This document shows, one piece after another, positions 1 to 49,212 of a DNA stretch of 64,000 nt; within the stretch, counting starts at the first letter, position 1, and each line of letters starts with the position of its first letter. Both the position numbers and the translations under genes were made by a program. The notes under the pieces are model-generated. The model saw only the letters and a list, made by a program, of their open reading frames with translations, was not told the DNA's origin and did not search any database. The stretch comes from a virus, in IMG/VR virus record IMGVR_UViG_3300042553_000685. One strand, written 5' to 3'.

Positions 1-66
1 TCTGCCAACTCCACTAAGCTTGCGGATACGGATCGCCAGGGAGGTAGTGTACCTCCTGCTCGGGTT

Positions 67-462
67 ATGGCTAACCTTATGCCTGCTAAACTAGCTAAGG
101 AGCCCGCGGTAATCTACCATCTTATAAAGGCCCGCGCCCGTACTCTCACATACGGCGCTCTCGAACGGGGCAACTTCGCTCGCAAGAGCCTTATCATGTC
201 ATCTGCCATATACGGAGCCTTCCGTCGTACTGGCCAGGGTCATGATCCTGTGGTTCCTATGACTCAGGATGACGCGGCCAGTTATGGCGCTGATGATATC
301 GTCCCCGTTAGTGTGTTCGACATGGTAAGTGAGTTCCAACTCTCTAACTATGTCAAGAACCCTCAACTCAAGCAGCTGTTGGAAATCGCAACTGCTGTAC
401 ATCTCGATCTCGGTGACTACAAACTAGAACTCGCTGAAGCTGAAGATCATCCTGATTTCTAA
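67..462 (+). CDS. hypothetical protein (backbone)
   Basis: 131-aa ORF from track; followed by hairpins and a T-run; no recognisable motif. Confidence 0.5.
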   Translation: MANLMPAKLAKEPAVIYHLIKARARTLTYGALERGNFARKSLIMSSAIYGAFRRTGQGHDPVVPMTQDDAASYGADDIVPVSVFDMVSEFQLSNYVKNPQLKQLLEIATAVHLDLGDYKLELAEAEDHPDF

Positions 463-486
463 TTACAATGGGGTCATATGACCCCT

Positions 487-512
487 GGGGCCACCTGGCC
501 CCTTTTTCTTTT
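487..512 (+). terminator. rho-independent terminator candidate
   Basis: ggggcca/tggcccc stem (487-502) followed by tttttctttt; preceded by second hairpin ggggtcatatgacccc (470-485). Confidence 0.55.
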
Positions 513-540
513 AGTGGAGCTCTTTACTCCATATGATAGG

Positions 541-925
541 TAGTATCTGGTATTGCCCATGACAGCGAATGTTACTAGCGGCGGCTTATGCTCGTGACGG
601 CGAATTCTATTAGCGGTGGCAATAAACTATCTGTTGGGTACTCCCTAAGCACCCAGCAAGAGCTGCGTTAGTTTCATTAGCCACTCCCTTTCAGAAGAGC
701 TATTGTCGCGATAGCTACCATAGCTATATTAGCCACTCCCCAACGGAGGAGCTTATGGTACTCGAGCTGCGAAAGTAGCCAGTGCCACTCCCCAACAGAG
801 GGGCTTGTGTCGCACTAGTCGTGATAACTACTATAGCTGCACTAGCTGCTCTAGCCACTCCGTTGGGGAGGGCCTATGGTACTCGAGCTGCGAAAGTAGT
901 CGATACCACTCCCCAACGGAGGGAT
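541..925. repeat. complex intergenic repeat / hairpin array
   Basis: 25-nt pair gacRgcgaatNNtaNtagcggYggc at 561-585 and 596-620. Five copies of CCACTCC-N5-GGAGG hairpin motif at 681-700, 733-752, 785-804, 855-874 (loop inverted: gttgg instead of ccaac) and 906-925. Exact 25-nt repeat tatggtactcgagctgcgaaagtag at 754-778 and 875-899 (period 121 bp). Confidence 0.85.
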
Positions 926-963
926 ATAACCTCTAATTACTCATTATTACCTATTAGCTAGCC

Positions 964-1650
964 ATGAGAACACAACGCGCCGCCAAAACCACCGCAGGAA
1001 CCACCGCCAAAACCACTACTACTCTATCCCCTATAGAAGCATTCAAAGCAGCGGTAGCAGAACCTAAACCACAGGAATCCAAAGCGCAACTGCTTTTCTC
1101 AATAGCGTTTACAACTAAGTTCCTTCCAGAACGCATGTGGAGCAAAATGTGTGCCGATGGAACCGTCCGGCTAATCGGCACAGTCGCGCGGACTAATAAC
1201 ATTACCCATCAGGGCAACCCAGTCAACAACGACCAGTTAGCTGGTCTCACAGTTGAAGTCCGGGTAACACCGGACCAATTTGAGATTATCACTGATGGCG
1301 CTGAAGACATGGTAGGAGGGGGCGTCTCTATCCTGTTTGAAGTAGGGGAGCCCAGCTTATCTGAACTCACCGCAGCAAACGGTGAGGAAGTCAATAGCAT
1401 TGTCTTCTACGCTAAGTCCTTATTAGGCATAGAAGTCAATCAGACTGCTATCGGCAGCCTAGGCTTTGAGACAAAGGAAAAGATGGATGACTGGTTCTTA
1501 GCAGCGCGGTCTCAGAATAATAATCGGCAGAAGCGCCGGCAGGAGGAACGTACTTCCCGACTGCAAGCTGCTCGTGCAGCAGCAGATGCAGCAAATAATA
1601 ATAATACGGAGTGGGCGGCCCCTGCCGCAAGCACCAATCCTATGGAATAA
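964..1650 (+). CDS. hypothetical protein, low-complexity N and C termini
   Basis: 228-aa ORF; T/A-rich N-terminus, basic RQKRRQEER tail; no catalytic motif recognised. Confidence 0.55.
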   Translation: MRTQRAAKTTAGTTAKTTTTLSPIEAFKAAVAEPKPQESKAQLLFSIAFTTKFLPERMWSKMCADGTVRLIGTVARTNNITHQGNPVNNDQLAGLTVEVRVTPDQFEIITDGAEDMVGGGVSILFEVGEPSLSELTAANGEEVNSIVFYAKSLLGIEVNQTAIGSLGFETKEKMDDWFLAARSQNNNRQKRRQEERTSRLQAARAAADAANNNNTEWAAPAASTNPME

Positions 1651-1653
1651 GAA

Positions 1654-1713
1654 TCAGCTGACCTTATCGGAGGTCGGCTGATATACGCCTCTCTACCAGT
1701 AGAGAGGCGTATA
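1654..1713 (+). terminator. tandem strong hairpins after ORF 964-1650
   Basis: tcagctgacc/ggtcggctga (1654-1681) and perfect 14-bp stem tatacgcctctcta/tagagaggcgtata (1682-1713); no clear T-run, so terminator function uncertain. Confidence 0.4.
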
Positions 1714-1739
1714 AACCGTTCTACTACAGAGAGAAGGAA

Positions 1740-2750
1740 ATGAACGCTACACCACACACAATAATATCTAGACAGGGCGTCGAACAAAATAGAAGACAGT
1801 TTAAAGAACAACCCTTCGGGGAAGATTTGGGCAACGACATAACCTTAGAAATGGTTGCTATCCCAGGGGGAACTTTCCTGATGGGTTCATCGCCAAATGA
1901 GAAATATAGTTTTGATGATGAACACCCTCAACATCAAGTAAGTGTCCCACCCTTTTTCATGGGTAAATACCCCATCACTCAGGCTCAGTGGAAAGAGGTT
2001 GCCTCTCGCACAGATTTAAAAGTTGAAAGAGACCTTGATCTCAACCCAGCCTATTTTAAAGACCGTCCCGATAGTGATCGCCGCCCCGTAGAACAAGTCA
2101 ACTGGTACGATGCCGTTGAATTTTGTGCGAGATTATCGATACTGACGGGAAGGGAATACCGACTACCGAGTGAAGCGGAATGGGAATACGCTTGTCGTGC
2201 TGGAACTACTACCCCATTCTACTTTGGGGAAACCATTACAGGGGAATTGGCTAACTATGACGCCAGCGAAACAACTCCCGTGGGACAATTTACACCCAAT
2301 GCCTTCGGACTGTACGATATGCACGGCAATGTCTGGGAATGGTGTGCTGATACTTGGCATGATAACTATGACGGTGCGCCTAGTGACGGTAGTGTTTGGC
2401 TTGATAATAATCAAGAGGAAAATATTGATGGAAAGAGCAGATTCGGCACATATTCTGTCATGCGGGGCGGTTCTTGGTGCATACATCCGTCTTACTGCCG
2501 TTCCGCTTCCCGCAGCAGCCGCGATCGCCGCGACTACTTCAACCTCTACGGTTTTCGGGTAGTCTGCGTCGACCTTGATCGCGAGGGTGCTGATTCCCCT
2601 CGATTTTGGGATAAAGCTGATCGCTTGATGGTGGTGACGGTAGGAGGTGCAGCCCTAGGTGGATCGATTGCGGGAGTTTACGGTGCGGTTATTGGTGCGA
2701 TATTAGCGGCGGGCTGCGGATGGTATATTACCTTTAGGAAAGCAAAATGA
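1740..2750 (+). CDS. FGE-sulfatase (SUMF1-like) domain protein with C-terminal glycine-zipper membrane anchor
   Basis: Motifs GGTFLMGS, HQVSVPPFFMGKYPITQAQW, VNWYDAVEFC, YRLPSEAEWEYACRAG, GLYDMHGNVWEWC, RGGSW, GFRVVC; C-terminal VVTVGGAALGGSIAGVYGAVIGAILAAGCGWYI hydrophobic segment. Confidence 0.85.
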   Translation: MNATPHTIISRQGVEQNRRQFKEQPFGEDLGNDITLEMVAIPGGTFLMGSSPNEKYSFDDEHPQHQVSVPPFFMGKYPITQAQWKEVASRTDLKVERDLDLNPAYFKDRPDSDRRPVEQVNWYDAVEFCARLSILTGREYRLPSEAEWEYACRAGTTTPFYFGETITGELANYDASETTPVGQFTPNAFGLYDMHGNVWEWCADTWHDNYDGAPSDGSVWLDNNQEENIDGKSRFGTYSVMRGGSWCIHPSYCRSASRSSRDRRDYFNLYGFRVVCVDLDREGADSPRFWDKADRLMVVTVGGAALGGSIAGVYGAVIGAILAAGCGWYITFRKAK

Positions 2751-2789
2751 AAACTTTGTTATCAGCAATCAAATAATAGAGGTTATGTC

Positions 2790-3155
2790 ATGTTGTCATT
2801 TGAAGAGCTTCAGAGTAAAGCATTAGCAGAGAAACAATTGCTGTCATATGAAGAGTTTCAGAATCGGGTCTTAGAGGTATTTAATGCCTCTGAAGAAGAG
2901 TGCGATTTTTATGATTTCTCGCGTAGTTTCGTTGCAGAAATTAGTTACACTAATCGCCAGTGGTTACAGTTTGTGATCAAGTATATCACAGACCCTGAAA
3001 ACTGTTACTGTGGCCACTGGATTACCGTAAAAAGGTACGACAAGGCCTGTAAGAGTATTACTGAGTTATTGCCTCAAGCAATAGAAGTTCTTGCACAAAG
3101 AACAGAGGAAAGTATAAAAGAAGAAATTGCTGTTTTTAACCAATTAAAGAAGTAA
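2790..3155 (+). CDS. hypothetical protein (cassette-type composition)
   Basis: 121-aa ORF preceded by gaggt RBS-like sequence. Confidence 0.5.
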   Translation: MLSFEELQSKALAEKQLLSYEEFQNRVLEVFNASEEECDFYDFSRSFVAEISYTNRQWLQFVIKYITDPENCYCGHWITVKRYDKACKSITELLPQAIEVLAQRTEESIKEEIAVFNQLKK

Positions 3156-3169
3156 TTAGGGAGTAAAAA

Positions 3170-3355
3170 ATGAGCCTCTGCCTATCATGCGCCCGTCCTA
3201 AAGATAAAGACCCGTGTATGGGTCAATTCTCTGACGGGCATTACTATTGGGGAACTCCAGTAGTTCGGTCCGAATTGGAGAAGGTACCTTCTTGGGTACG
3301 GGATAAAGAAGTATATTCTGTTAAGGAGTGCAGCAGATGGGAAGAAAACCCTTAA
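3170..3355 (+). CDS. small Cys-containing hypothetical protein
   Basis: 61-aa ORF, RBS-like gggagt upstream; overlaps next ORF by 28 nt. Confidence 0.35.
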   Translation: MSLCLSCARPKDKDPCMGQFSDGHYYWGTPVVRSELEKVPSWVRDKEVYSVKECSRWEENP

Positions 3356-3966
3356 GTGCCTTAATAATATGTGCAATAACGGCACTCGGCGTAGCTGCAT
3401 TCGCTGGCGTAGGATCTAACCTATCGAAGGCCTCGCCTTCCATATGTAGCGCTAATAATGACAAGGTAGTAGATAGAGTTAAGGTAATCACATCCACCGA
3501 TCCCCTACTTGCCTCTAATAGGAGAGGCTGTTATGTATATATACCCTTAGATGGGCCCCCGCCTGAGATAGGCGAGCGGTTAACTATACGAGGGAGAATG
3601 GTGAATGGTGAGTTTAAGGGCACCTATAACCGTACTTATCTAGACTATGATAGTGATAGCAACCCTAGGCTTAAGAAGCGGTTCCTCAGAATAGAGGAGC
3701 CCTTACAAGAGACCGAACCTGGTTCTGGTTACTATCTGTTAGGTAACCTCAGCCTACGCGTCGATGCGCTCGACGTGCGGGCCATCAATTATGCGTTACG
3801 ACACGGCGGTGTCGTATACGCCATCATCGAATGGGACCAAGGTGTAGTTTATACTATGACCTTCGTTAACGAGACCGAGTTCTATGAGGCCATAAAACGT
3901 GCTAGATACACTACTCGCTCTTATACTAGGGAGGAGGCCCCCGCCCATACCAGTAGAGCTATGTGA
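3328..3966 (+). CDS. hypothetical protein with N-terminal signal/anchor
   Basis: 212-aa ORF; N-terminal LSALIICAITALGVAAFAG hydrophobic segment. Confidence 0.5.
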   Translation: MQQMGRKPLSALIICAITALGVAAFAGVGSNLSKASPSICSANNDKVVDRVKVITSTDPLLASNRRGCYVYIPLDGPPPEIGERLTIRGRMVNGEFKGTYNRTYLDYDSDSNPRLKKRFLRIEEPLQETEPGSGYYLLGNLSLRVDALDVRAINYALRHGGVVYAIIEWDQGVVYTMTFVNETEFYEAIKRARYTTRSYTREEAPAHTSRAM

Positions 3967-4204
3967 TATAAAGCGCCATAATGGCGCCCACGTGACAATT
4001 AGGAAGGCCTGGGTTAAGAGCACTACATACTCTAACCCTCTACTACCCGACCATGCCTACGCCCTCCTATACGAGGACGTAGGCACTAGTAGGTGCAGTG
4101 TACTTATCCTGGCTAAAAGAATACGCAGCGGTAGGTTTATAGAAGTAACGGGTAACGTTAGTAACGGCACGTTAATTAACGTTACCTTTAAAACATTACC
4201 TTAG
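3899..4204 (+). CDS. hypothetical protein, start uncertain
   Basis: 101-aa ORF overlapping previous ORF by 68 nt; real start may be internal. Confidence 0.25.
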   Translation: MLDTLLALILGRRPPPIPVELCDIKRHNGAHVTIRKAWVKSTTYSNPLLPDHAYALLYEDVGTSRCSVLILAKRIRSGRFIEVTGNVSNGTLINVTFKTLP

Positions 4205-4214
4205 GGTAAGTCAC

Positions 4215-5258
4215 ATGACAATCGTATTGGGGGCACTGGCCCTCATAGTATCTCTGATACCATATCTCAGTATCGAGATTCTGTTGATGGCGCTTATGCC
4301 GCTTATTAGCGGCGATAACGCGATGGGCGTATTAGCTATAGTGATAATTGGCACTATCACCAGTGAGGCCCGCATGAGTAACCCGGCCTTCACTGGTATG
4401 AGGGTAGTTACCGCCACTAGCGGGTACGACGCATCGGCTTCGCTGTTAATACGCATCACCAGCCTAATTGGTGGCATAGTAGCCAGTCTAGGCATAGTAG
4501 TCATGGACCAATACCTCGGTGTATCTCATATGTGGATAACGCCATTAATGATGGTCATCTTCATATTGGTGCAGTGTTGGGGCCGCGCCGAGATGGTAGG
4601 TCTAGCCGTGATAACGGCTATCTTCCTATGGTTCCTGCATAGTCAGCCCCACGCTACTACCATCCTGGGTATGGGGGGCTACGTTATGGCCAGCCTAATA
4701 CGCCCCGCTAGGCGTAAGACTGAGGACTGTGAGACCAGCAATGCGCTGGGCATCGCTATATCACTAGGACCATTCCTGGCTATTGGGTTACCTGTAGCCG
4801 CAGCCGCCCCTGATGGTAAGACTGAATCCTATCTCGAAGCGGTAGTGCGGGGCATATCATTGGGACTAGTCATGTTAGGTAATAGTAGTGGGCGAGATGC
4901 CATGAGTTCCTATCTGGCCCTAACGGATGTAGATCAGTTGAATTGGCCCGCCTTCGTCGGCGTAGTAGTGTTACTGACGCCCCTATTCTTATCAGCCTAT
5001 TGGCTGACCATCTGGATGATAAGGAGTCCTATGTGGCAACGCTGGTTACACGCCGGCCCCACTCGCCTTATCAATCTAGGTGTAACGGCGGCCGCGCTGG
5101 TCGTGTTGATGGCATCGGCTCACGTTAGTATTCTATTCCTACCGGGGGCCGTATGTCTAGGACTGATGTATATGGTAGGGGAGTTATCAGGAATAGATAA
5201 GATGCTACCCTTCCCCATACTAATAGTCGTCAGTTATATAAGCCAATGGGTCTCCTAG
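4215..5258 (+). CDS. polytopic membrane protein
   Basis: 347-aa ORF with many hydrophobic segments along the whole length. Confidence 0.6.
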   Translation: MTIVLGALALIVSLIPYLSIEILLMALMPLISGDNAMGVLAIVIIGTITSEARMSNPAFTGMRVVTATSGYDASASLLIRITSLIGGIVASLGIVVMDQYLGVSHMWITPLMMVIFILVQCWGRAEMVGLAVITAIFLWFLHSQPHATTILGMGGYVMASLIRPARRKTEDCETSNALGIAISLGPFLAIGLPVAAAAPDGKTESYLEAVVRGISLGLVMLGNSSGRDAMSSYLALTDVDQLNWPAFVGVVVLLTPLFLSAYWLTIWMIRSPMWQRWLHAGPTRLINLGVTAAALVVLMASAHVSILFLPGAVCLGLMYMVGELSGIDKMLPFPILIVVSYISQWVS

Positions 5259-5359
5259 TGTAATACTAGGCCCCAGTGGGGCACTAGGGGACATCGACTG
5301 CGGCCTAATCGGCGGCACTGGGTGTACCCATCCATTAACTACATACGCCGGAGAGCTAT

Positions 5360-5599
5360 ATGCCTATAGAATTAGATGCGCGTCACGTAGCGTATCTATC
5401 ACTGTTCATGTTCGCGGTGATCGTGCTGGTCATCACGCATAGTGTAGCGGTATTGCTAATCGTAGCATTCCTGGCCCGCGCGCTCTATCTATCGAGCTCC
5501 AAGCGGAGCAATGCGCGTATCATACTATCACCTAATGGTGTAGAGAGTCGAGTAGGCGGGAAGAGCTACTGGAAGATAGGGGAGGTAGGAAATGTCTAG
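5360..5599 (+). CDS. small membrane protein
   Basis: 79-aa ORF, hydrophobic segment YLSLFMFAVIVLVITHSVAVLLIVAFLA. Confidence 0.4.
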   Translation: MPIELDARHVAYLSLFMFAVIVLVITHSVAVLLIVAFLARALYLSSSKRSNARIILSPNGVESRVGGKSYWKIGEVGNV

Positions 5600-5814
5600 C
5601 TACCCCATTCATCTATATAGTCTAGCCATTAAGCCGCGATATAAAGAACTAGTAGTTCTTGTATCCAAGGCATGTCTGGAGATGAAGAAGGCCCCCGCAG
5701 GGGGGACCAGCCGTCAAGTATGGCCATACTACGGAGCCCGCCGCGGAGAAGAGTGGCCGCACCACTAAGGGGCACCAGGTCCCGCCTTATCAATTAACCA
5801 ACTAACGAGGTAAT

Positions 5815-17254: not shown

Positions 17255-18301
17255 ATGACTTCTATTAATTTTTACGAAAGAACGGCGCTTATCAAGCGTA
17301 TCGAAAACAATCTCAATAAAATTAACCAAAGATATTTTGACAAAAGCCACGTGATATTATCAGTGACTGATAACGGTGATTACCTCACTGTTAAAAAACA
17401 AGGTGTTTACTTAGCAGATTATGACACTCAAAAGCTTTTTGACGCTCTAGAAAATTTTATTGAAGAAGTTCGGGAGCTTCTTAGTTTTCCTTACGACCTA
17501 TGGGACTATTTAGATTATTGCAGGTACACGCCAGAAGATCAAAACTCTGACAACTTAAGCAAATTAGTTGAGGAACTAGAAACAAAAAATGAAATTCTGG
17601 AGAAAAAAAATCAAGAATTAGAACAGAGCAAAGAATACAACGAAGCATGGATTGACAACTTAAAACAAAAGGTTCACGATTTAGAATCCTCAGTTTGGCT
17701 ACTGCAACAGGAAAATAAGCGACTAAAAAATCAATCAGAGTTAGGAGTAAAAATGACAATTACAATGGTAAAGATACCAGCAAGTCAAGAAATTAAAAGT
17801 TTTAGAATTGGCAAATATCCAGTGACTCAGGAACAGTATCAGGCGGTAATGGGAGTTAATCCTTCCCATTTTCAAGGCAATCCTCAGAATCCAGTGGAAA
17901 GTGTTAGTTATGATGATGCTCAAGCTTTTTGTGAAAAACTAAGTCAGATAACAGGGAAAAATTATCGCTTACCCACAGTATCAGAATGGGAGTATGCCTG
18001 TCGAGCAGGTACAGTTACTGGGTATTATTTCGGAGATGATTATCATCAGTTAAGAGATTACGCTTGGTATTTTGATAATTCTCAGGGAACAACCCATCCT
18101 GTAGGATTAAAGCTACCCAATGCCTGGGGACTGTACGATATGCACGGTAACGTCTGGGAATGGTGTCAAAAGGATTTTCATCTGCGGGGCGGTTCCTGGG
18201 GCAGCCTTTCTACTTTCTGCCGTTCCGCGTTTCGCTACAGCAGCCTTCGCCGCGACGACCGCACCGTCGTTAGCGGTTTTCGGGTAGTCTGTGACAATTA
18301 G
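17255..18301 (+). CDS. coiled-coil N-domain fused to shortened FGE-sulfatase domain
   Basis: N-terminal about 165 aa rich in heptads (LVEELETKNEILEKKNQELEQSKE). C-terminal motifs GKYPVTQEQY, YRLPTVSEWEYACRAG, GLYDMHGNVWEWC, RGGSW, GFRVVC. Internal ttaggagtaaaaATG at 17741-17755. Confidence 0.8.
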   Translation: MTSINFYERTALIKRIENNLNKINQRYFDKSHVILSVTDNGDYLTVKKQGVYLADYDTQKLFDALENFIEEVRELLSFPYDLWDYLDYCRYTPEDQNSDNLSKLVEELETKNEILEKKNQELEQSKEYNEAWIDNLKQKVHDLESSVWLLQQENKRLKNQSELGVKMTITMVKIPASQEIKSFRIGKYPVTQEQYQAVMGVNPSHFQGNPQNPVESVSYDDAQAFCEKLSQITGKNYRLPTVSEWEYACRAGTVTGYYFGDDYHQLRDYAWYFDNSQGTTHPVGLKLPNAWGLYDMHGNVWEWCQKDFHLRGGSWGSLSTFCRSAFRYSSLRRDDRTVVSGFRVVCDN

Positions 18302-24694: not shown

Positions 24695-25258
24695 TTGATT
24701 CAACAATACAATAACTTGCCCATAGAATTCATAGAAAGCTATGTTAGCGCTAGGGATGTTCTCAGAGCTCTCAATCTCTCTGACGATGCTCTAGAACAGG
24801 TCACTAGTCATAACAAGCTTATGAAGAACTCAACAATGGTGCTAGAACCAGCTGGTGTATATCAGCTGGTTCTTATCAATGATGAGATAGACTTCTGGGA
24901 CTGGTACAGTGACGAAGCGCTAGCTGTTGCTAAGGAGTCGATGTTGCGTATGAGTAATTACATGAAGGCTCGGCGTATCCTCAAGGATATTATGGATGCC
25001 CCCGATGCTGTCGATAAGCTGCCCCGCATAGTTAATCAACTAATCGCAGCACGAGAGTATAAGAGTGATATATCTAAATATGATGCCGAACTGTCTGTAT
25101 GGCAGCAGATAATAGATAAGTTAAAGGAGCGCGGCCATCCTCATCCTCGACTCTTTCTATCTACGTTCCCTGATATACACGTCAATATAAAGTCTGAGGT
25201 TATGTACGAGGACGCGTTAACAGTATGCTACGAGATAGCAGGAGAATACATTGCTTGA
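24695..25258 (+). CDS. hypothetical protein with N-terminal QYNNLPIE motif
   Basis: TTG at 24695 preceded by gggaga; track start 24515 lies inside the previous gene. Confidence 0.45.
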   Translation: MIQQYNNLPIEFIESYVSARDVLRALNLSDDALEQVTSHNKLMKNSTMVLEPAGVYQLVLINDEIDFWDWYSDEALAVAKESMLRMSNYMKARRILKDIMDAPDAVDKLPRIVNQLIAAREYKSDISKYDAELSVWQQIIDKLKERGHPHPRLFLSTFPDIHVNIKSEVMYEDALTVCYEIAGEYIA

Positions 25259-25742
25259 GACTGTATTGGCGCTGCCCGCCATTAGACAAGATAGAACAGC
25301 GTTACCCTTTGTCTTCCCAGAGTTATCCCTCTATACTCTCCTGAGTATAGAAGATGTCATTCCTGACATCACTATTAACGTAGTGGCTACTAGTCCGTGG
25401 GCCCAGGGCACACACTATGGCACTATGTATTGGACTGTTCTAGTAGTGCGTTATCAGAACAGTCCCTTCTTAGTAGTGGGCCGTCGTTACGTGACAGATG
25501 GGCTTAACCCTAACGAAACGGCCCTCCGCTACGTAATAGACCAGGACCTCTATCGTACGGCTATCAACTACGCACTACAGCAGGAGACAGAGGAGGTAGT
25601 CTTTACTAATAAGGAGCGGCCCCTCGATAAAGAGAAGGCCCAGGCCTTTCATCGCATCGGGAGTGAGATACGCTTTATAGAGGCTGATGCCCTCAGCTGC
25701 ACTATTGGGGACATCAATACATTACTTGATATATTATTATGA
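25251..25742 (+). CDS. hypothetical protein, probably the 5' part of a gene split by cassette insertion
   Basis: 163-aa ORF whose last about 55 nt are imperfectly repeated at 26677-26720. Confidence 0.5.
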   Translation: MLETVLALPAIRQDRTALPFVFPELSLYTLLSIEDVIPDITINVVATSPWAQGTHYGTMYWTVLVVRYQNSPFLVVGRRYVTDGLNPNETALRYVIDQDLYRTAINYALQQETEEVVFTNKERPLDKEKAQAFHRIGSEIRFIEADALSCTIGDINTLLDILL

Positions 25743-26626
25743 AACATTTAGTTAATCCAGATTCAGTTAAACCGTTGCAAAAGTTAGAATTGTTATCATT
25801 TAACTTTGAGGTGGTGCAAGTAAATGAGAAGGGTGAGCAAATTAACAAAGAGTCAAAGCAGTCCCAATATTTCAGCCAAGATTTAGACAACGACATCACC
25901 TTAGAAATGGTTGCCATCCCAGAGGGAACTTTCCTGATGGGTTCACCACAAGACGAAAAAGATAGTTACGATGATGAACGTCCTCAACATGAGGTTAACG
26001 TCCCCACCTTTTTCATGGGCAAGTATCCCATCACCCAAACACAGTGGAGAGCGATTGCCGCAACCGCTAAAATAGACATCGACCTAGAGACAAACCCTTC
26101 TGAATTCAAAGGGGATGAGCTACCCGTAGAAAGTGTCAACTGGTATCAAGCAACGGAATTTTGTAAACGACTATCAAGAGAAACAAAACGGGAGTATCGA
26201 CTACCGAGTGAGGCGGAATGGGAGTACGCTTGTCGTGCTGGAACCACCACCCCATTTTACTTTGGGGAAACCATTACGGGGGAATTGGCTAACTACAATA
26301 CTAACAAAACCTACGTCGAGGAATATCGAAACGAAACAACTCCCGTGGGACAATTTCCCCCAAACGCTTTTGGACTGTACGATATGTACGGCAATGTCTG
26401 GGAATGGTGCGCCGATACTTGGCACGATAACTATGACGGGGCGCCGACGGATGGCAGTGCTTGGATAGAAAATGGGGATGATAATCGTTCTCCTCTGCGG
26501 GGCGGGGCTTGGTACACCTTTCCGTATCGCTGCCGTTCTGCTCACCGCAACATCGACGCCCGCCGCTACAGCCGCAGCTTCCTTTACGGTTTTCGGGTGG
26601 TGTGCAGTGCTGAAAGGACTCTGTAG
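25739..26626 (+). CDS. FGE-sulfatase (SUMF1-like) domain protein
   Basis: EGTFLMGSP, HEVNVPTFFMGKYPITQTQW, YRLPSEAEWEYACRAG, GLYDMYGNVWEWC, RGGAW, GFRVVC; long near-identical nucleotide stretches with 1740-2750. Confidence 0.85.
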   Translation: MKHLVNPDSVKPLQKLELLSFNFEVVQVNEKGEQINKESKQSQYFSQDLDNDITLEMVAIPEGTFLMGSPQDEKDSYDDERPQHEVNVPTFFMGKYPITQTQWRAIAATAKIDIDLETNPSEFKGDELPVESVNWYQATEFCKRLSRETKREYRLPSEAEWEYACRAGTTTPFYFGETITGELANYNTNKTYVEEYRNETTPVGQFPPNAFGLYDMYGNVWEWCADTWHDNYDGAPTDGSAWIENGDDNRSPLRGGAWYTFPYRCRSAHRNIDARRYSRSFLYGFRVVCSAERTL

Positions 26627-46104: not shown

Positions 46105-49100
46105 ATGCAAATCAACGTTATACACACAGATGGTACTCGTACCCCCTATGATGCCAATCGCGCTATCGAGGTAATTAACTGGGCCTGCGAGGGCCTAGAG
46201 GTAGATCCCGATAAGTTATCTCGGCGACTTAGTCGTCGCTTTAATGATGATATCACTACAGAAGCGATACAGAATGGTCTGATTAGATCAGCAGCTGAAT
46301 TAGCCGACTTGAATTACCCTGATTGGCTGAAGGTCAGTGGTCGTCTTCGTATGTGGGATTGGCGGCGTAAGGTTAAGGCCCGCCGCGGCTATCTCTATGG
46401 TAATTATCCAGTGGCCTTCGAGTACCTGAGGTCTGAGGGCCTCTATGAAGGAGACCTAATAAAGAACTTCTTAGACTTGTATAGTACTGATGACATTGCT
46501 GAAGCCGGCACCTGGATAGACCCAGAGCGCGATATGCGCTTTGATATAAGCGGCGCTGATCTTCTCGTCTCGCGCTATCTACTAGAGGGTGAGTTACTAC
46601 AGGAGATGTGGCTAACACAAGCATTACTCCTCAGTATGCTGGAGCCCGCCCACGAGCGTATGGCCTTTGCTCATAAGACCTATGACCTACTCAGCCTCGG
46701 TAAGATCAGCCTGGCCACTCCTCTTATGAGTAATCTACGTCAGGCCGATGGTAGCCTCAGTAGTTGTCATATAATCGATATCGATGATAGTCGCGAGAGT
46801 ATCTTCGATAATATCAAGCAGCTAGCAGCAATGAGTGCTAATGGCGGTGGGGTGGGCATACGCATTAGTAAGGTGCGGGCCCGCGGTAGTCGTATTCGTA
46901 AGAAGAAGGGCGCCAGTGGTGGCGTATGCCCTTGGATTAAGATTATCAATGCTACCATCGTCGCTACTAATCAACGCGGTGTACGCGCAGGGGCCTGTAC
47001 CGTAGGTATAGACGTATGGCATGCTGACCTCCTTGAGTACATGGATCTGCGGGGCGATGCTGGTAGTGAGCATACGAAGGCTCGTGATATCCTGCTGCAA
47101 TTCATTATCTCTGATGAGTTCATGCGTCGAGTAATTCTCGATGAGGACTGGTACCTAGTGTGCCCTACTGAAATCAAGAATGTATTTGGATATCAATTAG
47201 CCGATATGTACGGTGATGAATTTACCAATGCCTATCACGCCATCGAAACATATATCAACTCCTCCGCTCCTCCGCTCGACGTAGTTAAGAGGGTCAGCGC
47301 TAAGGCTATATGGAAGAAGATGCTGATGCTCCTACTTGAGACAGGTACTCCTTATGTGGCCTTTAAAGACCGCATTAATGCGCTTAACCCTAACAAGCAT
47401 GAAGGTATCATCGGTGGAGTAAATCTATGCGTAGCCCCTGAGACACTTCTTTTGACTGATCGGGGCCACCTACCTATCGCTACCCTAGCAGGGCAGGTAG
47501 TCAACGCTTGGAACGGTAGTGAGTGGAGTGAGGTAACGGTACGCCAGACAGGAGAGAATCAGCCCCTTCTACGAGTCCACTTCAGTAATGGAGAGACGCT
47601 CGACTGTACCTACTACCATAAGTTCCACGTACAGCGTCGTAATGGGGTAGATATTGTCGAGGCCCGCGATCTCGAGATAGGTGATAAGCTTATTAATTTC
47701 GATTTGCCAGTTCTATCCTCTGATAACGATGTTGATTTCCTTATATCAAAACTAGGTGACGATAAGGAAGAGTTACTATCTTACATCGCATATCTTCGTA
47801 ATCCTAAGGTAGCGGTATACGATTACGTGAAGCAGACCTGTCAGAAGCCCTCATTATATTGCCCTGATGATTTAACTGTTCCCATTAATGGTTATACTAT
47901 TCAGACCCGATTAGAGTGGTTGGCTAGGCTGCTTGATTCTAATGGTACTTATAATAGCTTCCAAACCTTCAAAATAACGCATACCAGTAAGCCCTTCCTA
48001 TTACAAGTGCGGCTCATGCTACAGACGCTTGGAGTGGACTCTAAGGTTTTCCCCCGGTATAAAGGGCTTCGGGCGTATCGTCAGGAGAAGTTCTGCCTAT
48101 TAATTGATAGGTATGGAGTATATCAGTTATCCCAACTAGGCCTACGAACTAATCGCCTTCAGTGGATGGCTAAAAAACCTAAGTATGACAATACTGATCA
48201 CATTACTATCAAGAAGGTAGAACTCACTGGTCGTCGTGATAATACGTACTGCGCTCACGAACCTAAGCGTAACCTGCTCATGTTCAATGGAGTGCTTACA
48301 GGCAATTGCGTCGAGTCATATAGTTTATTCAATAGCAGCTACTCACATTGCTGTATGCTTCTGTCGTTAGTACTACCTCGTATTGCTGACGATGAGATGG
48401 CTGATGTTAGCCGTATGGCTGTTCGTCTATTAGATGCCGCGTGTGATCTTACTACTAGCCCTACTCCTGAGGCTCGCGCTCATGTGAGCCGCTATCGTAC
48501 CATAGGCGTAGGTGTCATGGGGCTGGCTGACTGGTTAGCCATTAGGCACCTTAAGTATCAGGATCTCGATGTCATAGAAAGACTATTCGAAGACATCTGC
48601 TTCTATACTACTCAGGCTAGTGTAGAACTAGCAGAGGAGCGCGGGGCTTATCCTGCATTCCCTGGTAGTGAGTGGAGTAAGGGCCTTATCCTGGGTGGTC
48701 GTGATAAGGAGTGGGTGAGAGATAATAGCACCGACCCCGAGAGATGGTATGCCCTCATGGAGCGTTTAGTCGTATCGGGTATTCGTAATTCTCACATCCT
48801 GGCTACTGCTCCTAACTCCAGCACCTCGTTGGTACAGGGCACCACGGCTTCCTTCTTACCTGTCTTCTCTCGTCTTACCATTGATAAGAATGGGGCTGGT
48901 ATTAATACCATTGTCCCACTCTATATCAAGGAGGCATTTCACTTTTATCAGGAGAGCCGCCATACTCATCCCAGTGTCGTAGTCTCTGCTGCAGCAGTTA
49001 TTCAGAAATGGATAGATACTGGTCTTAGCACTGAGTTGTTATTCAATTTCAATGAACACGCCTATGGCCTCGACATCGTAGCCACTGCTAAGGATCTAAA

Positions 49101-49212
49101 TGATGTCTATCTGCAGGCGTGGCGTGAGGGCCTCAAGACATTATATTACGTGCGGAGTATATGGCAGGATAAGGTAACTGAGAAGAATGAGTGCCATTCC
49201 TGCGCTAGTTAA
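46105..49212 (+). CDS. nrdA: class I ribonucleotide reductase alpha subunit, intein-containing
   Basis: GGGVGIRISKVRARGS, catalytic NLC..E motif restored after removing the intein, C-terminal CHSC redox pair; R2 gene nearby. Confidence 0.9.
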   Translation: MQINVIHTDGTRTPYDANRAIEVINWACEGLEVDPDKLSRRLSRRFNDDITTEAIQNGLIRSAAELADLNYPDWLKVSGRLRMWDWRRKVKARRGYLYGNYPVAFEYLRSEGLYEGDLIKNFLDLYSTDDIAEAGTWIDPERDMRFDISGADLLVSRYLLEGELLQEMWLTQALLLSMLEPAHERMAFAHKTYDLLSLGKISLATPLMSNLRQADGSLSSCHIIDIDDSRESIFDNIKQLAAMSANGGGVGIRISKVRARGSRIRKKKGASGGVCPWIKIINATIVATNQRGVRAGACTVGIDVWHADLLEYMDLRGDAGSEHTKARDILLQFIISDEFMRRVILDEDWYLVCPTEIKNVFGYQLADMYGDEFTNAYHAIETYINSSAPPLDVVKRVSAKAIWKKMLMLLLETGTPYVAFKDRINALNPNKHEGIIGGVNLCVAPETLLLTDRGHLPIATLAGQVVNAWNGSEWSEVTVRQTGENQPLLRVHFSNGETLDCTYYHKFHVQRRNGVDIVEARDLEIGDKLINFDLPVLSSDNDVDFLISKLGDDKEELLSYIAYLRNPKVAVYDYVKQTCQKPSLYCPDDLTVPINGYTIQTRLEWLARLLDSNGTYNSFQTFKITHTSKPFLLQVRLMLQTLGVDSKVFPRYKGLRAYRQEKFCLLIDRYGVYQLSQLGLRTNRLQWMAKKPKYDNTDHITIKKVELTGRRDNTYCAHEPKRNLLMFNGVLTGNCVESYSLFNSSYSHCCMLLSLVLPRIADDEMADVSRMAVRLLDAACDLTTSPTPEARAHVSRYRTIGVGVMGLADWLAIRHLKYQDLDVIERLFEDICFYTTQASVELAEERGAYPAFPGSEWSKGLILGGRDKEWVRDNSTDPERWYALMERLVVSGIRNSHILATAPNSSTSLVQGTTASFLPVFSRLTIDKNGAGINTIVPLYIKEAFHFYQESRHTHPSVVVSAAAVIQKWIDTGLSTELLFNFNEHAYGLDIVATAKDLNDVYLQAWREGLKTLYYVRSIWQDKVTEKNECHSCAS
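47428..48306 (+). mobile_element. intein (293 aa) with degenerate LAGLIDADG-like endonuclease region
   Basis: Starts CVAPETLLLTD, block B TYYH, ends VLTGN followed by +1 Cys. Excision joins GGVNL to CVESYS, giving NLCVE. WLARLLDSNGT resembles a LAGLIDADG motif. Confidence 0.8.

Follow-up and report, generated by a model that had tools for sequence, protein, structure and literature searches.

The gene at 1740-2750 is one of three in this window (the 64,000-nucleotide stretch of viral DNA analysed here) that encode an FGE-sulfatase domain, and the question that it raises is where a phage obtained such a domain and what it may use it for. The initial annotation had proposed that the three are copies of a host sensor module that lack any effector domain and that they may act as decoys. 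The window belongs to a Ma-LMM01-type (Fukuivirus) Microcystis myophage, with 85-91% DNA identity to LMM01, MaMV-DC, and MaMV-DL01, and the phage families RIIA, RNR, and ThyX are found in it. All three ORFs are present and match PF03781 in the profile search that had been suggested as a check, with E-values of 9e-56 (1740-2750), 1.9e-36 (17255-18301), and 6.5e-59 (25739-26626). Their scores of 126-200 bits, compared with a gathering cut-off of 23.3, place them in the FGE-sulfatase fold. The match spans residues 37-275 of copy 1 (P0001) and residues 175-345 of copy 2 (P0002). The three genes are as follows.

1740..2750, plus strand: P0001, 336 aa, a chimera of a CLec/FGE-fold domain, a DGR-type variable region, and a host-derived glycine-zipper membrane tail
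17255..18301, plus strand: P0002, 348 aa, a coiled-coil-containing phage module at the N-terminus (residues 1-172), then a shortened CLec/FGE domain and variable region
25739..26626, plus strand: P0003 (copy 3), 295 aa, a host TIR-FGE-type linker and a CLec/FGE domain, with no further module

The nearest non-phage relatives are Microcystis proteins with TIR+FGE, caspase+FGE, kinase+FGE, and GUN4+FGE architectures, which agrees with the earlier statement that in cyanobacteria this domain is mostly a C-terminal module. The phage copies are 65-72% identical to Microcystis TIR-FGE and caspase-FGE proteins, P0001 being 72% identical to one of the TIR-FGE proteins. A phylogeny had been proposed as a check for capture from the host, and in our tree the phage copies are nested among the Microcystis multidomain FGE proteins. 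As judged by homology and tree position, the three ORFs clearly derive from Microcystis genes whose products, TIR, orthocaspase, or GUN4/MoxR-VMAP proteins, end in this domain as a C-terminal 'sensor'. TIR models associated with Thoeris and with Argonaute match the TIR domain of the host. In P0003, which overlaps the upstream ORF 25251-25742 at its start, the segment that had been quoted as a possible linker and the TIR-FGE linker of the host are homologous, with 24/29 residues equal. This protein (residues 1-295) aligns at 69% identity with a Microcystis TIR-FGE protein of 448 aa (residues 140-448), and the alignment begins directly past the TIR domain. In the tree, the domain body of P0002 falls together with the G012 DGR target and double-FGE proteins of Microcystis. 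The N-terminal module of P0002 recurs in ~90 proteins that measure 200-570 aa and end in different C-termini. The coiled coil noted earlier in P0002 corresponds to a heptad-like N-terminal region, but the only profile matches to it are weak ones, to Troponin/TSC22.

Two further claims about the copies have to be revised. Copies 1 and 3 had been thought to result from recent duplication or gene conversion, because of the stretch 2161-2262 versus 26199-26300. The identity there is indeed high (92/102), but over the whole genes it is 74% at the nucleotide level, with a dS of ~0.8, and a recent duplication is therefore rejected. As this stretch encodes the most conserved motif of the family and its synonymous differences still amount to 27-41%, its identity is no sign of such an event. 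The absence of an effector domain is not peculiar to the phage either, since CLec-only genes also occur on the host chromosome and inside DGR cassettes. Our statements on the fold are based on sequence matches to solved structures; an AlphaFold model of P0001 (42-sequence alignment) had a mean pLDDT of 49, too poor for use.

P0001 has an additional C-terminal part.

2568..2750, plus strand: tail of P0001 (residues 277-336), made up of a pre-membrane segment and a hydrophobic glycine-zipper helix and acquired from a host gene

The membrane anchor that had been noticed in this copy is borne out by a hydrophobic, glycine-rich C-terminal segment (residues 304-322, mean Kyte-Doolittle 1.81). At the amino acid level, the tail is 90-97% identical to the C-terminal ends of Microcystis proteins of 194-236 aa; over 176 nt, its nucleotide identity to the gene at L260:8001-8711 of NIES-298, the host of Ma-LMM01, is 94.9%. 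That gene begins 3 nt past the gene for a 1012-aa TPR-CHAT protease. The description of copy 1 as effector-less and merely anchored therefore does not hold, because in this tail the phage has recently captured part of a host gene that is coupled to a TPR-CHAT protease. None of the PADLOC models matched the host membrane protein (194-236 aa) or any of the phage proteins, and candidate promoters and terminators around 1740-2750 did not rise above chance.

The family includes enzymes, and the three proteins might thus be metabolic oxidases of the FGE, PvdO, or EgtB type. PvdO is in fact the best match in both PDB (5HHA, E-values of 4e-40 to 5e-44) and NCBIfam (NF051459, best scores of 167-176 bits), but the NF051459 scores, 72-176 bits, are far under the curated equivalog cut-off of 500. 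True FGE enzymes require a Cys pair, the copper-binding C-x4-C, which in the human enzyme is C336/C341. When GGSWCIHPSYC of P0001 is aligned by HMMER to GGSFLCHESYC of the T. curvata FGE, the second Cys alone coincides, and P0002 and P0003 have one Cys each. The extra Cys of P0001 occupies a position of the variable region described below, beside that of the first catalytic Cys, and this position changes between orthologues. Because the FGE Cys pair is absent, the three proteins are not enzymes. Sulfatase, pyoverdine, or ergothioneine genes were not found nearby; the neighbouring ORFs are without a Pfam match or fall into phage families whose function is unknown. What had been named as evidence against a decoy, stand-alone FGE enzymes with intact catalytic Cys residues and sulfatase partners, is not what we find here, and we give an enzymatic role next to no weight.

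The initial annotation missed that the last ~110 nt of each phage gene are a DGR variable region. To our knowledge, DGRs are the sole natural machines for targeted protein hypermutation in prokaryotes. In variable proteins of the FGE/C-type-lectin fold, the binding face is predicted to be encoded in these last ~110 nt of the gene. The variable regions of the window and their best host templates are the following.

2462..2569, plus strand: variable region of P0001, within the ORF, from W246 to C276; best template of the G067b type, L253:2722-2828
18184..18291, plus strand: variable region of P0002; best template G080, L165:6812-6922, minus strand
26497..26605, plus strand: variable region of P0003, with an IMH-like 3' end to 26626; best template G084, L247:1362-1471, minus strand

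Mismatches at adenine and non-adenine sites of the template were counted and compared by Fisher tests. Copy 1 differs from its template at 19/30 adenine sites and 4/77 others, with no gaps (p=5e-10). The corresponding counts are 19/29 and 3/81 for copy 2 (p=2e-11) and 18/30 and 7/80 for copy 3 (p=8e-8), so that the copies of the window differ from the best template found at 3-7 non-adenine sites. In two viral contigs (L168 and L171), comparison with the G080 template gives 0/81 non-adenine mismatches, and in another (L203), comparison with the G067b template gives 0/77, with a 3-nt gap; zero is the level of the host's own cis targets. Aligned in this way, each phage variable region evidently follows a Microcystis DGR template repeat and differs from it almost only at template adenines.

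On the host side, one DGR cassette consists of VMAP-C, MoxR, a GUN4-FGE target, bAvd, the RT, the template, and a CLec-only target, and a second one of Pepco, caspase-FGE, bAvd, and RT. A host TIR-FGE gene is a remote DGR target, with mismatches at 18/29 adenine sites versus 2/78 other sites. The DGR RT is present in only 6/17 of the Microcystis species genomes searched, which were identified as Microcystis through an aspS 97-98% identical to that of strain MC19. Our main reading, to which we assign a probability of roughly 0.6, is that the phage has in these three ORFs members of the DGR variable protein family of cyanobacteria, with a non-catalytic FGE/C-type-lectin fold predicted to bind ligands, and that their variable regions have been rewritten from host templates.

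The phage sequences searched have no reverse transcriptase, Avd, or template repeat. The 64-kb window contained no template copy and, by tblastn, no RT or Avd. No RVT_1 or host-RT homologue was found in five complete Fukuivirus genomes, where the template-like matches were variable regions only, and five large viral contigs were likewise without RT, Avd, or template. The sole RVT_1 match, of 11 bits within a 700-aa ORF, is under any threshold. A phage-encoded DGR was rejected on the basis of these empty searches (RVT_1 HMM, host RT, Avd, and template DNA) of the window, five relatives, and five contigs.

Were the variable regions rewritten in the phage, or were they taken over as they stood? 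The locus of P0001 (locus 1) is syntenic with gp062 of Ma-LMM01 and has syntenic orthologues in L168-L172 and L187; for P0003, syntenic copies occur in L177-L186, L203, and L244. Between metagenomic and isolate relatives at locus 1, hypervariation is confined to the variable region: the gene body has 4 variable sites in 360 nt and the variable region 40 in 120 nt, and 15 orthologues have 13 variable-region alleles although residues 100-246 are invariant. Moreover, one and the same locus follows different templates, the copy of the window being of the G067b type and syntenic copies of the G080 type. P0002 likewise combines a domain body closest to the G012-type DGR target with a variable region of the G080 type that does not match the G012-type template. 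Near-identical syntenic genes with 13 alleles and different host template types indicate that the variable regions were rewritten after capture. The opposite view would be that they were diversified in the host before capture and have not changed since, so that the genes would be at most static decoys. This would fit with the fact that several isolates have one variable region in common, with 7 non-adenine mismatches, and that copy 1 shares its variable region with a 97%-identical relative; a single decayed variable region of the gp062 type is common to the Chinese isolates DC, CH01, DL01, and DH01. However, it has to account for 13 alleles in 15 syntenic orthologues with ~150 identical neighbouring residues and for different host template types at one phage locus. 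Repeated independent capture at one locus with the same phage-specific tail is implausible, and we consider such a relic improbable. The window copies themselves may be frozen, because they have 3-7 non-adenine mismatches and the copy 1 region is common with that 97%-identical relative.

The route of the rewriting is a separate matter. One possibility, to which we give clearly less than even odds, is that a chromosomal or plasmid DGR of Microcystis hypermutates genes of the lytic phage in trans during infection, the phage keeping only targets, as early binders that would counter or mimic the DGR-diversified sensors of the host. Alternatively, the variable regions may only have been swapped by homologous recombination or gene conversion with host targets and phage alleles, and never by retrohoming. 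The 3' ends of the variable regions bear on this choice. All host targets have a common conserved 3' end and a pyrimidine-rich downstream element. Of these IMH-like 3' parts, copy 3 has the coding part only, its 3' end resembling G067b/G084-type host variable regions as far as the stop codon and diverging beyond; copies 1 and 2 have neither, and the viral variant L178 has all. Canonical IMH-dependent homing is doubtful for copies 1 and 2, because they lack the conserved 3' element of host variable regions, and this counts in favour of recombination. In L178, the variable-region 3' end of the host is followed by ~50 nt of host downstream sequence, identical to those of a host TIR-FGE gene, and such a full downstream element points to plain recombination with a host gene. 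Recombination would also explain the captured tail of P0001 (95% nucleotide identity), the mosaic alleles of locus 1, with common 5' or 3' halves, and the situation at locus 2, where entire CLec domains differ between lineages beside an identical N-terminal module. At locus 1, on the other hand, the replaced tract is each time limited to the ~111 nt matching the template, and the flanks are phage specific on both sides, with only ~21 nt of 3' homology. The markers of copy 1 are of the G067b type across the variable region and its 3' end is of the G080 type, which fits a homing boundary. We rate recombination only as unlikely, and with or without it the host DGR remains the source of diversity.

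Combining these observations, we propose that, when the phage infects hosts that carry a DGR, products of this DGR would overwrite its variable regions, either by mutagenic retrohoming in trans or through recombination, in which host cDNA or the variable regions of the host would be the partner. The alleles would afterwards be shuffled among phages, and some lineages, possibly including window copies 1 and 3, would now look frozen.

What could such proteins do for the phage? A decoy function, as put forward initially, would be plausible. The copies are close homologues of the sensor module of host immune-type proteins, and early expression would help: in Ma-LMM01, gp054-gp063, including gp062, the orthologue of 1740-2750, belong to the early class, as confirmed by qRT-PCR (PMC5780444). 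With lower confidence, we suppose that the proteins are made early and are cytoplasmic, copy 1 being tethered to the membrane through the tail from the partner of the TPR-CHAT protease, and that they interfere with the host network of DGR-diversified sensors and effectors. They may compete for ligands or assembly partners of the sensors, or they may serve as rapidly evolvable binders of host factors. It could also be argued that one or more copies, above all P0002, are receptor-binding proteins like Mtd that track variation of the host surface. The CLec target is the receptor-binding protein in known phage DGRs (Mtd of Bordetella phage BPP-1), and P0002 has a fibre-like build, with a conserved N-terminal module that is also found in many proteins with other C-termini, a coiled coil, and a variable C-terminal CLec domain. 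However, these are small genes, located outside the tail module among other small genes that are early or variable, and a signal sequence is absent. Moreover, the only PHROG match of the three proteins is phrog_18508, none being structural, the gp062 orthologue is early (PMC5780444), and copy 1 is membrane anchored by its host tail. A place in the virion is thus very improbable.

The binders proposed here, which would act inside the host, have parallels in known systems. Cyanobacterial DGR targets with a C-terminal CLec/FGE domain were surveyed by Vallota-Eastman et al. in 2020 (PMC7517822). They have in common with the phage genes the domain family, the variable-region scaffold, templates with adenine-only mismatches, and the coexistence of CLec-only and multidomain forms, and within a single genome DGRs are known to serve remote targets in trans. 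The difference is that here the targets are in a lytic phage and the matching templates in the host genome. The survey could assign none of its cyanobacterial DGRs to a prophage element, and Microcystis is named in its searched text only in the reference list (PMC7517822). DGR-diversified 'putative antigen sensors' were described in MoxR/VMAP and NACHT conflict systems by Dore et al. in 2024 (PMC10907252), and FGE-like sensors occur in defence STANDs (PMC13581612).

The BPP-1 DGR (mtd/avd/TR/brt) likewise involves a phage gene with a CLec-fold C-terminus and a template-written variable region that changes at adenines. BPP-1, however, has its own RT, Avd, and template, and its target is the tail-fibre receptor-binding protein, whereas the phage of the window has targets only, which are probably early, non-structural genes, two of the three without the host-type IMH and downstream element. 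TvpA of Treponema denticola (PDB 2Y3C) shares the FGE-subtype CLec fold and a C-terminal variable region, and the sequence match to it (E-value of 2e-21) runs through the variable region, but it is a bacterial surface lipoprotein with the DGR in its own genome. PvdO (5HHA) and SUMF1 belong to the same Pfam family, PvdO being the best solved-structure match; they differ in that the phage proteins score under the family cut-offs, lack the catalytic Cys pair, and are predicted to be binding domains and not enzymes. A further parallel is with phage anti-defence proteins that imitate or sequester components of host immunity, such as the Tad1/Tad2 sponges, and with host CRISPR pieces carried by viruses, as here too probable early phage genes are built of host immune-type parts, but the phage proteins are not homologous to anti-defence proteins known so far (PADLOC gave no match).

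For colonial or multicellular bacteria, a recent proposal is that the cellular targets of DGRs are adaptive 'antigen sensors'. Sensor modules that match host templates in probable early genes of a lytic phage, in which no DGR was found, offer a natural and tractable test case for whether a DGR acts on an invading genome, for what it requires of a target, and for the ligands of CLec sensors. That two of the phage targets are without the usual 3' element raises the question of what the true requirements of a DGR target are. If action in trans is true, hypermutation would be coupled across two genomes in conflict, and the phage would borrow the mutagenesis machinery of the host for fast-evolving early proteins predicted to be binders. 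This also bears on the co-evolution of Microcystis blooms and their phages.

Finally, a database label can be corrected. Ma-LMM01 gp062 (in RefSeq) and phrog_18508 are labelled as Ser/Thr kinase, but PF03781 is the sole domain detected and no kinase domain was found; the label is inherited from kinase-FGE fusion proteins.

The window derives from a Microcystis myophage of the Ma-LMM01 type (Fukuivirus), with 85-91% identity by megablast to Ma-LMM01, MaMV-DC, MaMV-DL01/02, MaMV-CH01/02 and MaMV-DH01. Three of its ORFs had been given a formylglycine-generating enzyme (FGE)-sulfatase signature by the initial annotation, and their clean translations and PF03781 matches far above threshold bear this out:

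1740-2750 (+), P0001, copy 1 (locus 1)
17255-18301 (+), P0002, copy 2 (locus 2)
25739-26626 (+), P0003, copy 3 (locus 3)

P0001 and P0003 share 65% protein and 74% DNA identity, and P0002 is a more distant, shortened copy. Among solved structures PvdO (5HHA) ranked best, followed by FGEs and the variable protein TvpA (2Y3C) of a diversity-generating retroelement (DGR). Identity as PvdO, GldK or EgtB was rejected, as the NCBIfam scores were far under the curated cutoffs. When P0001 is aligned with a bacterial FGE by HMMER, only the second catalytic Cys is kept, and orthologues have A, V, G, or F in place of the Cys that lies in P0001 one position ahead of the first. Judged by their sequences, the three proteins are not enzymes. 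Ma-LMM01 gp062 (L001:3965-4795), the orthologue of 1740-2750, and phrog_18508 are FGE/CLec (C-type-lectin fold)-only proteins that are labeled "kinase" in RefSeq and PHROGs; no kinase domain was found in them.

Phage orthologues with 90-97% identity led a word-indexed search, followed by chromosomal TIR+FGE proteins of Microcystis (about 450 amino acids [aa]), with 67-72% identity across the FGE part. In an exhaustive search of 50%-identity representatives, the best 150 relatives were all 450-4448 aa long, and the 10 of these that were checked included caspase+FGE (68% identity), kinase+FGE, and GUN4+FGE proteins. P0003 aligns over its full length with residues 140-448 of a host TIR-FGE protein and starts directly after the TIR domain; the linker previously described as host type indeed matches this protein at 24 of 29 residues. 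One host TIR-FGE gene stands alone among housekeeping genes, and its TIR domain matches Argonaute-associated and Thoeris TIR models. In a quick maximum-likelihood tree that left out the variable region (SH-aLRT support only, many weak forks), P0001, the copies of the gp062 type, and most copies from locus 3 nested in a shallow clade of Microcystis proteins (TIR-FGE, caspase-FGE, and CLec-only). P0002-type copies formed a separate clade, whose neighbors are double-FGE proteins of Microcystis and the target belonging to a second type of DGR; this implies that the FGE-domain genes were captured at least twice.

The copies had been described as lacking any effector, one of them as "bare"; only P0003 is bare, and P0001 carries a second host piece and P0002 a phage module. 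Over its last 60 residues P0001 is 90-97% identical to the C terminus of a Microcystis protein family of 194-236 aa, for which no family match was found, and the tail DNA is 94.9% identical to a gene of M. aeruginosa NIES-298. The P0001 tail was copied from such a host gene. In another phage lineage (L175) a fragment of this host gene lies downstream of the FGE gene as a small ORF in its own right, so the fusion seen in the window is secondary. The NIES-298 gene begins 3 nt after a TPR-CHAT protease gene (1012 aa) and is followed by a 102-aa ORF (L260:4959-9027), and together they are a candidate protease-controlled membrane effector module. In the 236-aa product of this module, a helical N-domain is combined with one to three 21-aa PLPPLIRGVPTGGGIPLD repeats and a glycine-zipper membrane tail. 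Residues 1-172 of P0002 form a phage module present on about 90 proteins (200-570 aa) with other C termini. By these matches, P0001 consists of two host pieces and P0002 of a host piece and a phage piece.

When 13 orthologues of P0001 were aligned, residues 100-246 were invariant, and the roughly 25 residues lying between RGGSW and GFRVVC differed in almost every sequence. In the DNA of the three window copies and one host gene, common fixed bases are interrupted by codons varying at positions 1 and 2, which is the signature of a DGR. We compared each window variable region with its best-matching Microcystis template, using a Fisher test of adenine versus other sites:

P0001, 2462-2569, template G067b: mismatches at 19/30 adenines and 4/77 other bases, p = 5e-10
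P0002, 18184-18291, template G080: 19/29 adenines and 3/81 other bases, p = 2e-11
P0003, 26497-26605, template G084: 18/30 adenines and 7/80 other bases, p = 8e-8

For the host's own targets, mismatches to the template fall at 12-16 of 29-30 adenines and at none of the 80-81 remaining bases. Syntenic viral copies are as clean, with non-adenine mismatches at 0/81 sites for L168 and L171 against G080 and at 0/77, with one 3-nt gap, for L203 against G067b. A HIP1 site (GCGATCGC) inside the P0001 variable region (2489-2496) arose at template-adenine positions.

The window holds no reverse transcriptase (RT), no Avd, and no fourth copy of the variable-region sequence. Neither an RVT_1 match nor a homologue of the host RT was found in five complete Fukuivirus genomes, where template-like sequence occurs only as the variable regions of the 2-4 FGE genes, and five metagenomic phage contigs contained no RT. 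In Ma-LMM01 a third, partial variable-region- or template-like sequence (NC_008562.1 29001-29071) adjoins a short FGE gene and is probably the remnant of a lost paralogue. DGRs are present in Microcystis genomes, which were recognized by aspS (97-98% identity to strain MC19); of 17 Microcystis species genomes searched, 6 have a DGR RT, and there are at least five template types. One cassette encodes, in order, a VMAP-C protein, a MoxR-like ATPase, a GUN4+FGE target (1090-1238 aa), bAvd, RT (352 aa), the template repeat, and a CLec-only target (285 aa); another has Pepco, caspase+FGE, bAvd, and RT. In one Microcystis genome, the RT of a second DGR (L253/L254; G067:C132:29649-30840) is broken into a 191-aa and a 180-aa piece; the template of this DGR (L253:2722-2828, type G067b) is intact, and several phage variable regions, including window 2462-2569, follow that type. 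Directly after the stop codon of every Microcystis DGR target, cis or remote (TIR-FGE), lies a pyrimidine-rich element of about 50 nt, through which this DGR clade may recognize its targets:

L165:5640-5711
L165:10510-10583
L002:11386-11450
equivalent stretches of L247, L248, and L253

The templates have instead a common structured downstream stretch with a 6-bp hairpin.

Window 1-5700, phage-specific tail included, has syntenic counterparts in viral contigs L168-L172 and L187 (88-98% identity). The locus-1 genes of these contigs have 4 variable sites in 360 nt of the body versus 40 in 120 nt of the variable stretch, and 15 P0001 orthologues carry 13 alleles of the variable region. The template type at locus 1 is G080 in these contigs and G067b in the window; at locus 3, L177 and L178 follow G080 and the other copies G067b or G084. 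P0002 combines a domain body of the subfamily of another host DGR type (G012) with a G080-type variable region. Independent captures cannot explain such near-identical bodies, differing template types, and the P0002 mismatch. These patterns argue that the variable regions were rewritten within the phage lineage. Trans retrohoming by a host DGR may be responsible: the replaced tract at locus 1 is the template-matching stretch with phage-specific flanks on either side, and the internal markers of window copy 1 are of G067b type, joined to its own 3' end of G080 type. Recombination with host genes or other alleles may act as well or instead, as L178 has the host 3' end together with some 50 nt of the downstream element conserved in the host, alleles are mosaics, entire domains have been exchanged at locus 2, and the host 3' element is missing from copies 1 and 2. 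In some lineages the variable regions look frozen; Chinese isolates have one variable region in common, with 7 non-adenine mismatches, and the allele of window copy 1 is the same as in a 97%-identical relative. In full-text literature, searched non-exhaustively, we found no published description of a host-encoded DGR with templates matching genes in a lytic phage that lacks an RT.

Outside the variable region, dN/dS between copies 1 and 3 is about 0.3, and within that region pN is larger than pS, so the genes are maintained by selection. In Ma-LMM01, gp062 lies in the ten-gene early cluster gp054-gp063, confirmed by qRT-PCR (PMC5780444). It has been proposed that the CLec domains diversified by DGRs in MoxR/VMAP, caspase, and TIR proteins are antigen sensors (PMC10907252), and defense-associated STAND proteins also have FGE-like sensors (PMC13581612). 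Early phage copies of a host sensor, cytoplasmic or membrane-tethered, could interfere with the host sensor network. Such interference and a phage-side set of evolvable binders fit copies of this kind equally well, and we put the chance that the phage copies act as decoys, as the initial annotation proposed, at about one in three.

The phage families recognized in other large window ORFs are those of RIIA, ribonucleotide reductase, ThyX, an exonuclease, and IS605/TnpB transposases. In the ribonucleotide reductase large subunit (1035 aa, 46105-49212), residues 1-444 match one PHROG and residues 653-1034 a different one, which points to an inserted stretch of about 200 aa, perhaps an intein. Three TnpB-like transposase ORFs of the IS605/IS607 type lie in these 64 kb of phage DNA:

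8117-9289
34910-36637
37350-38531
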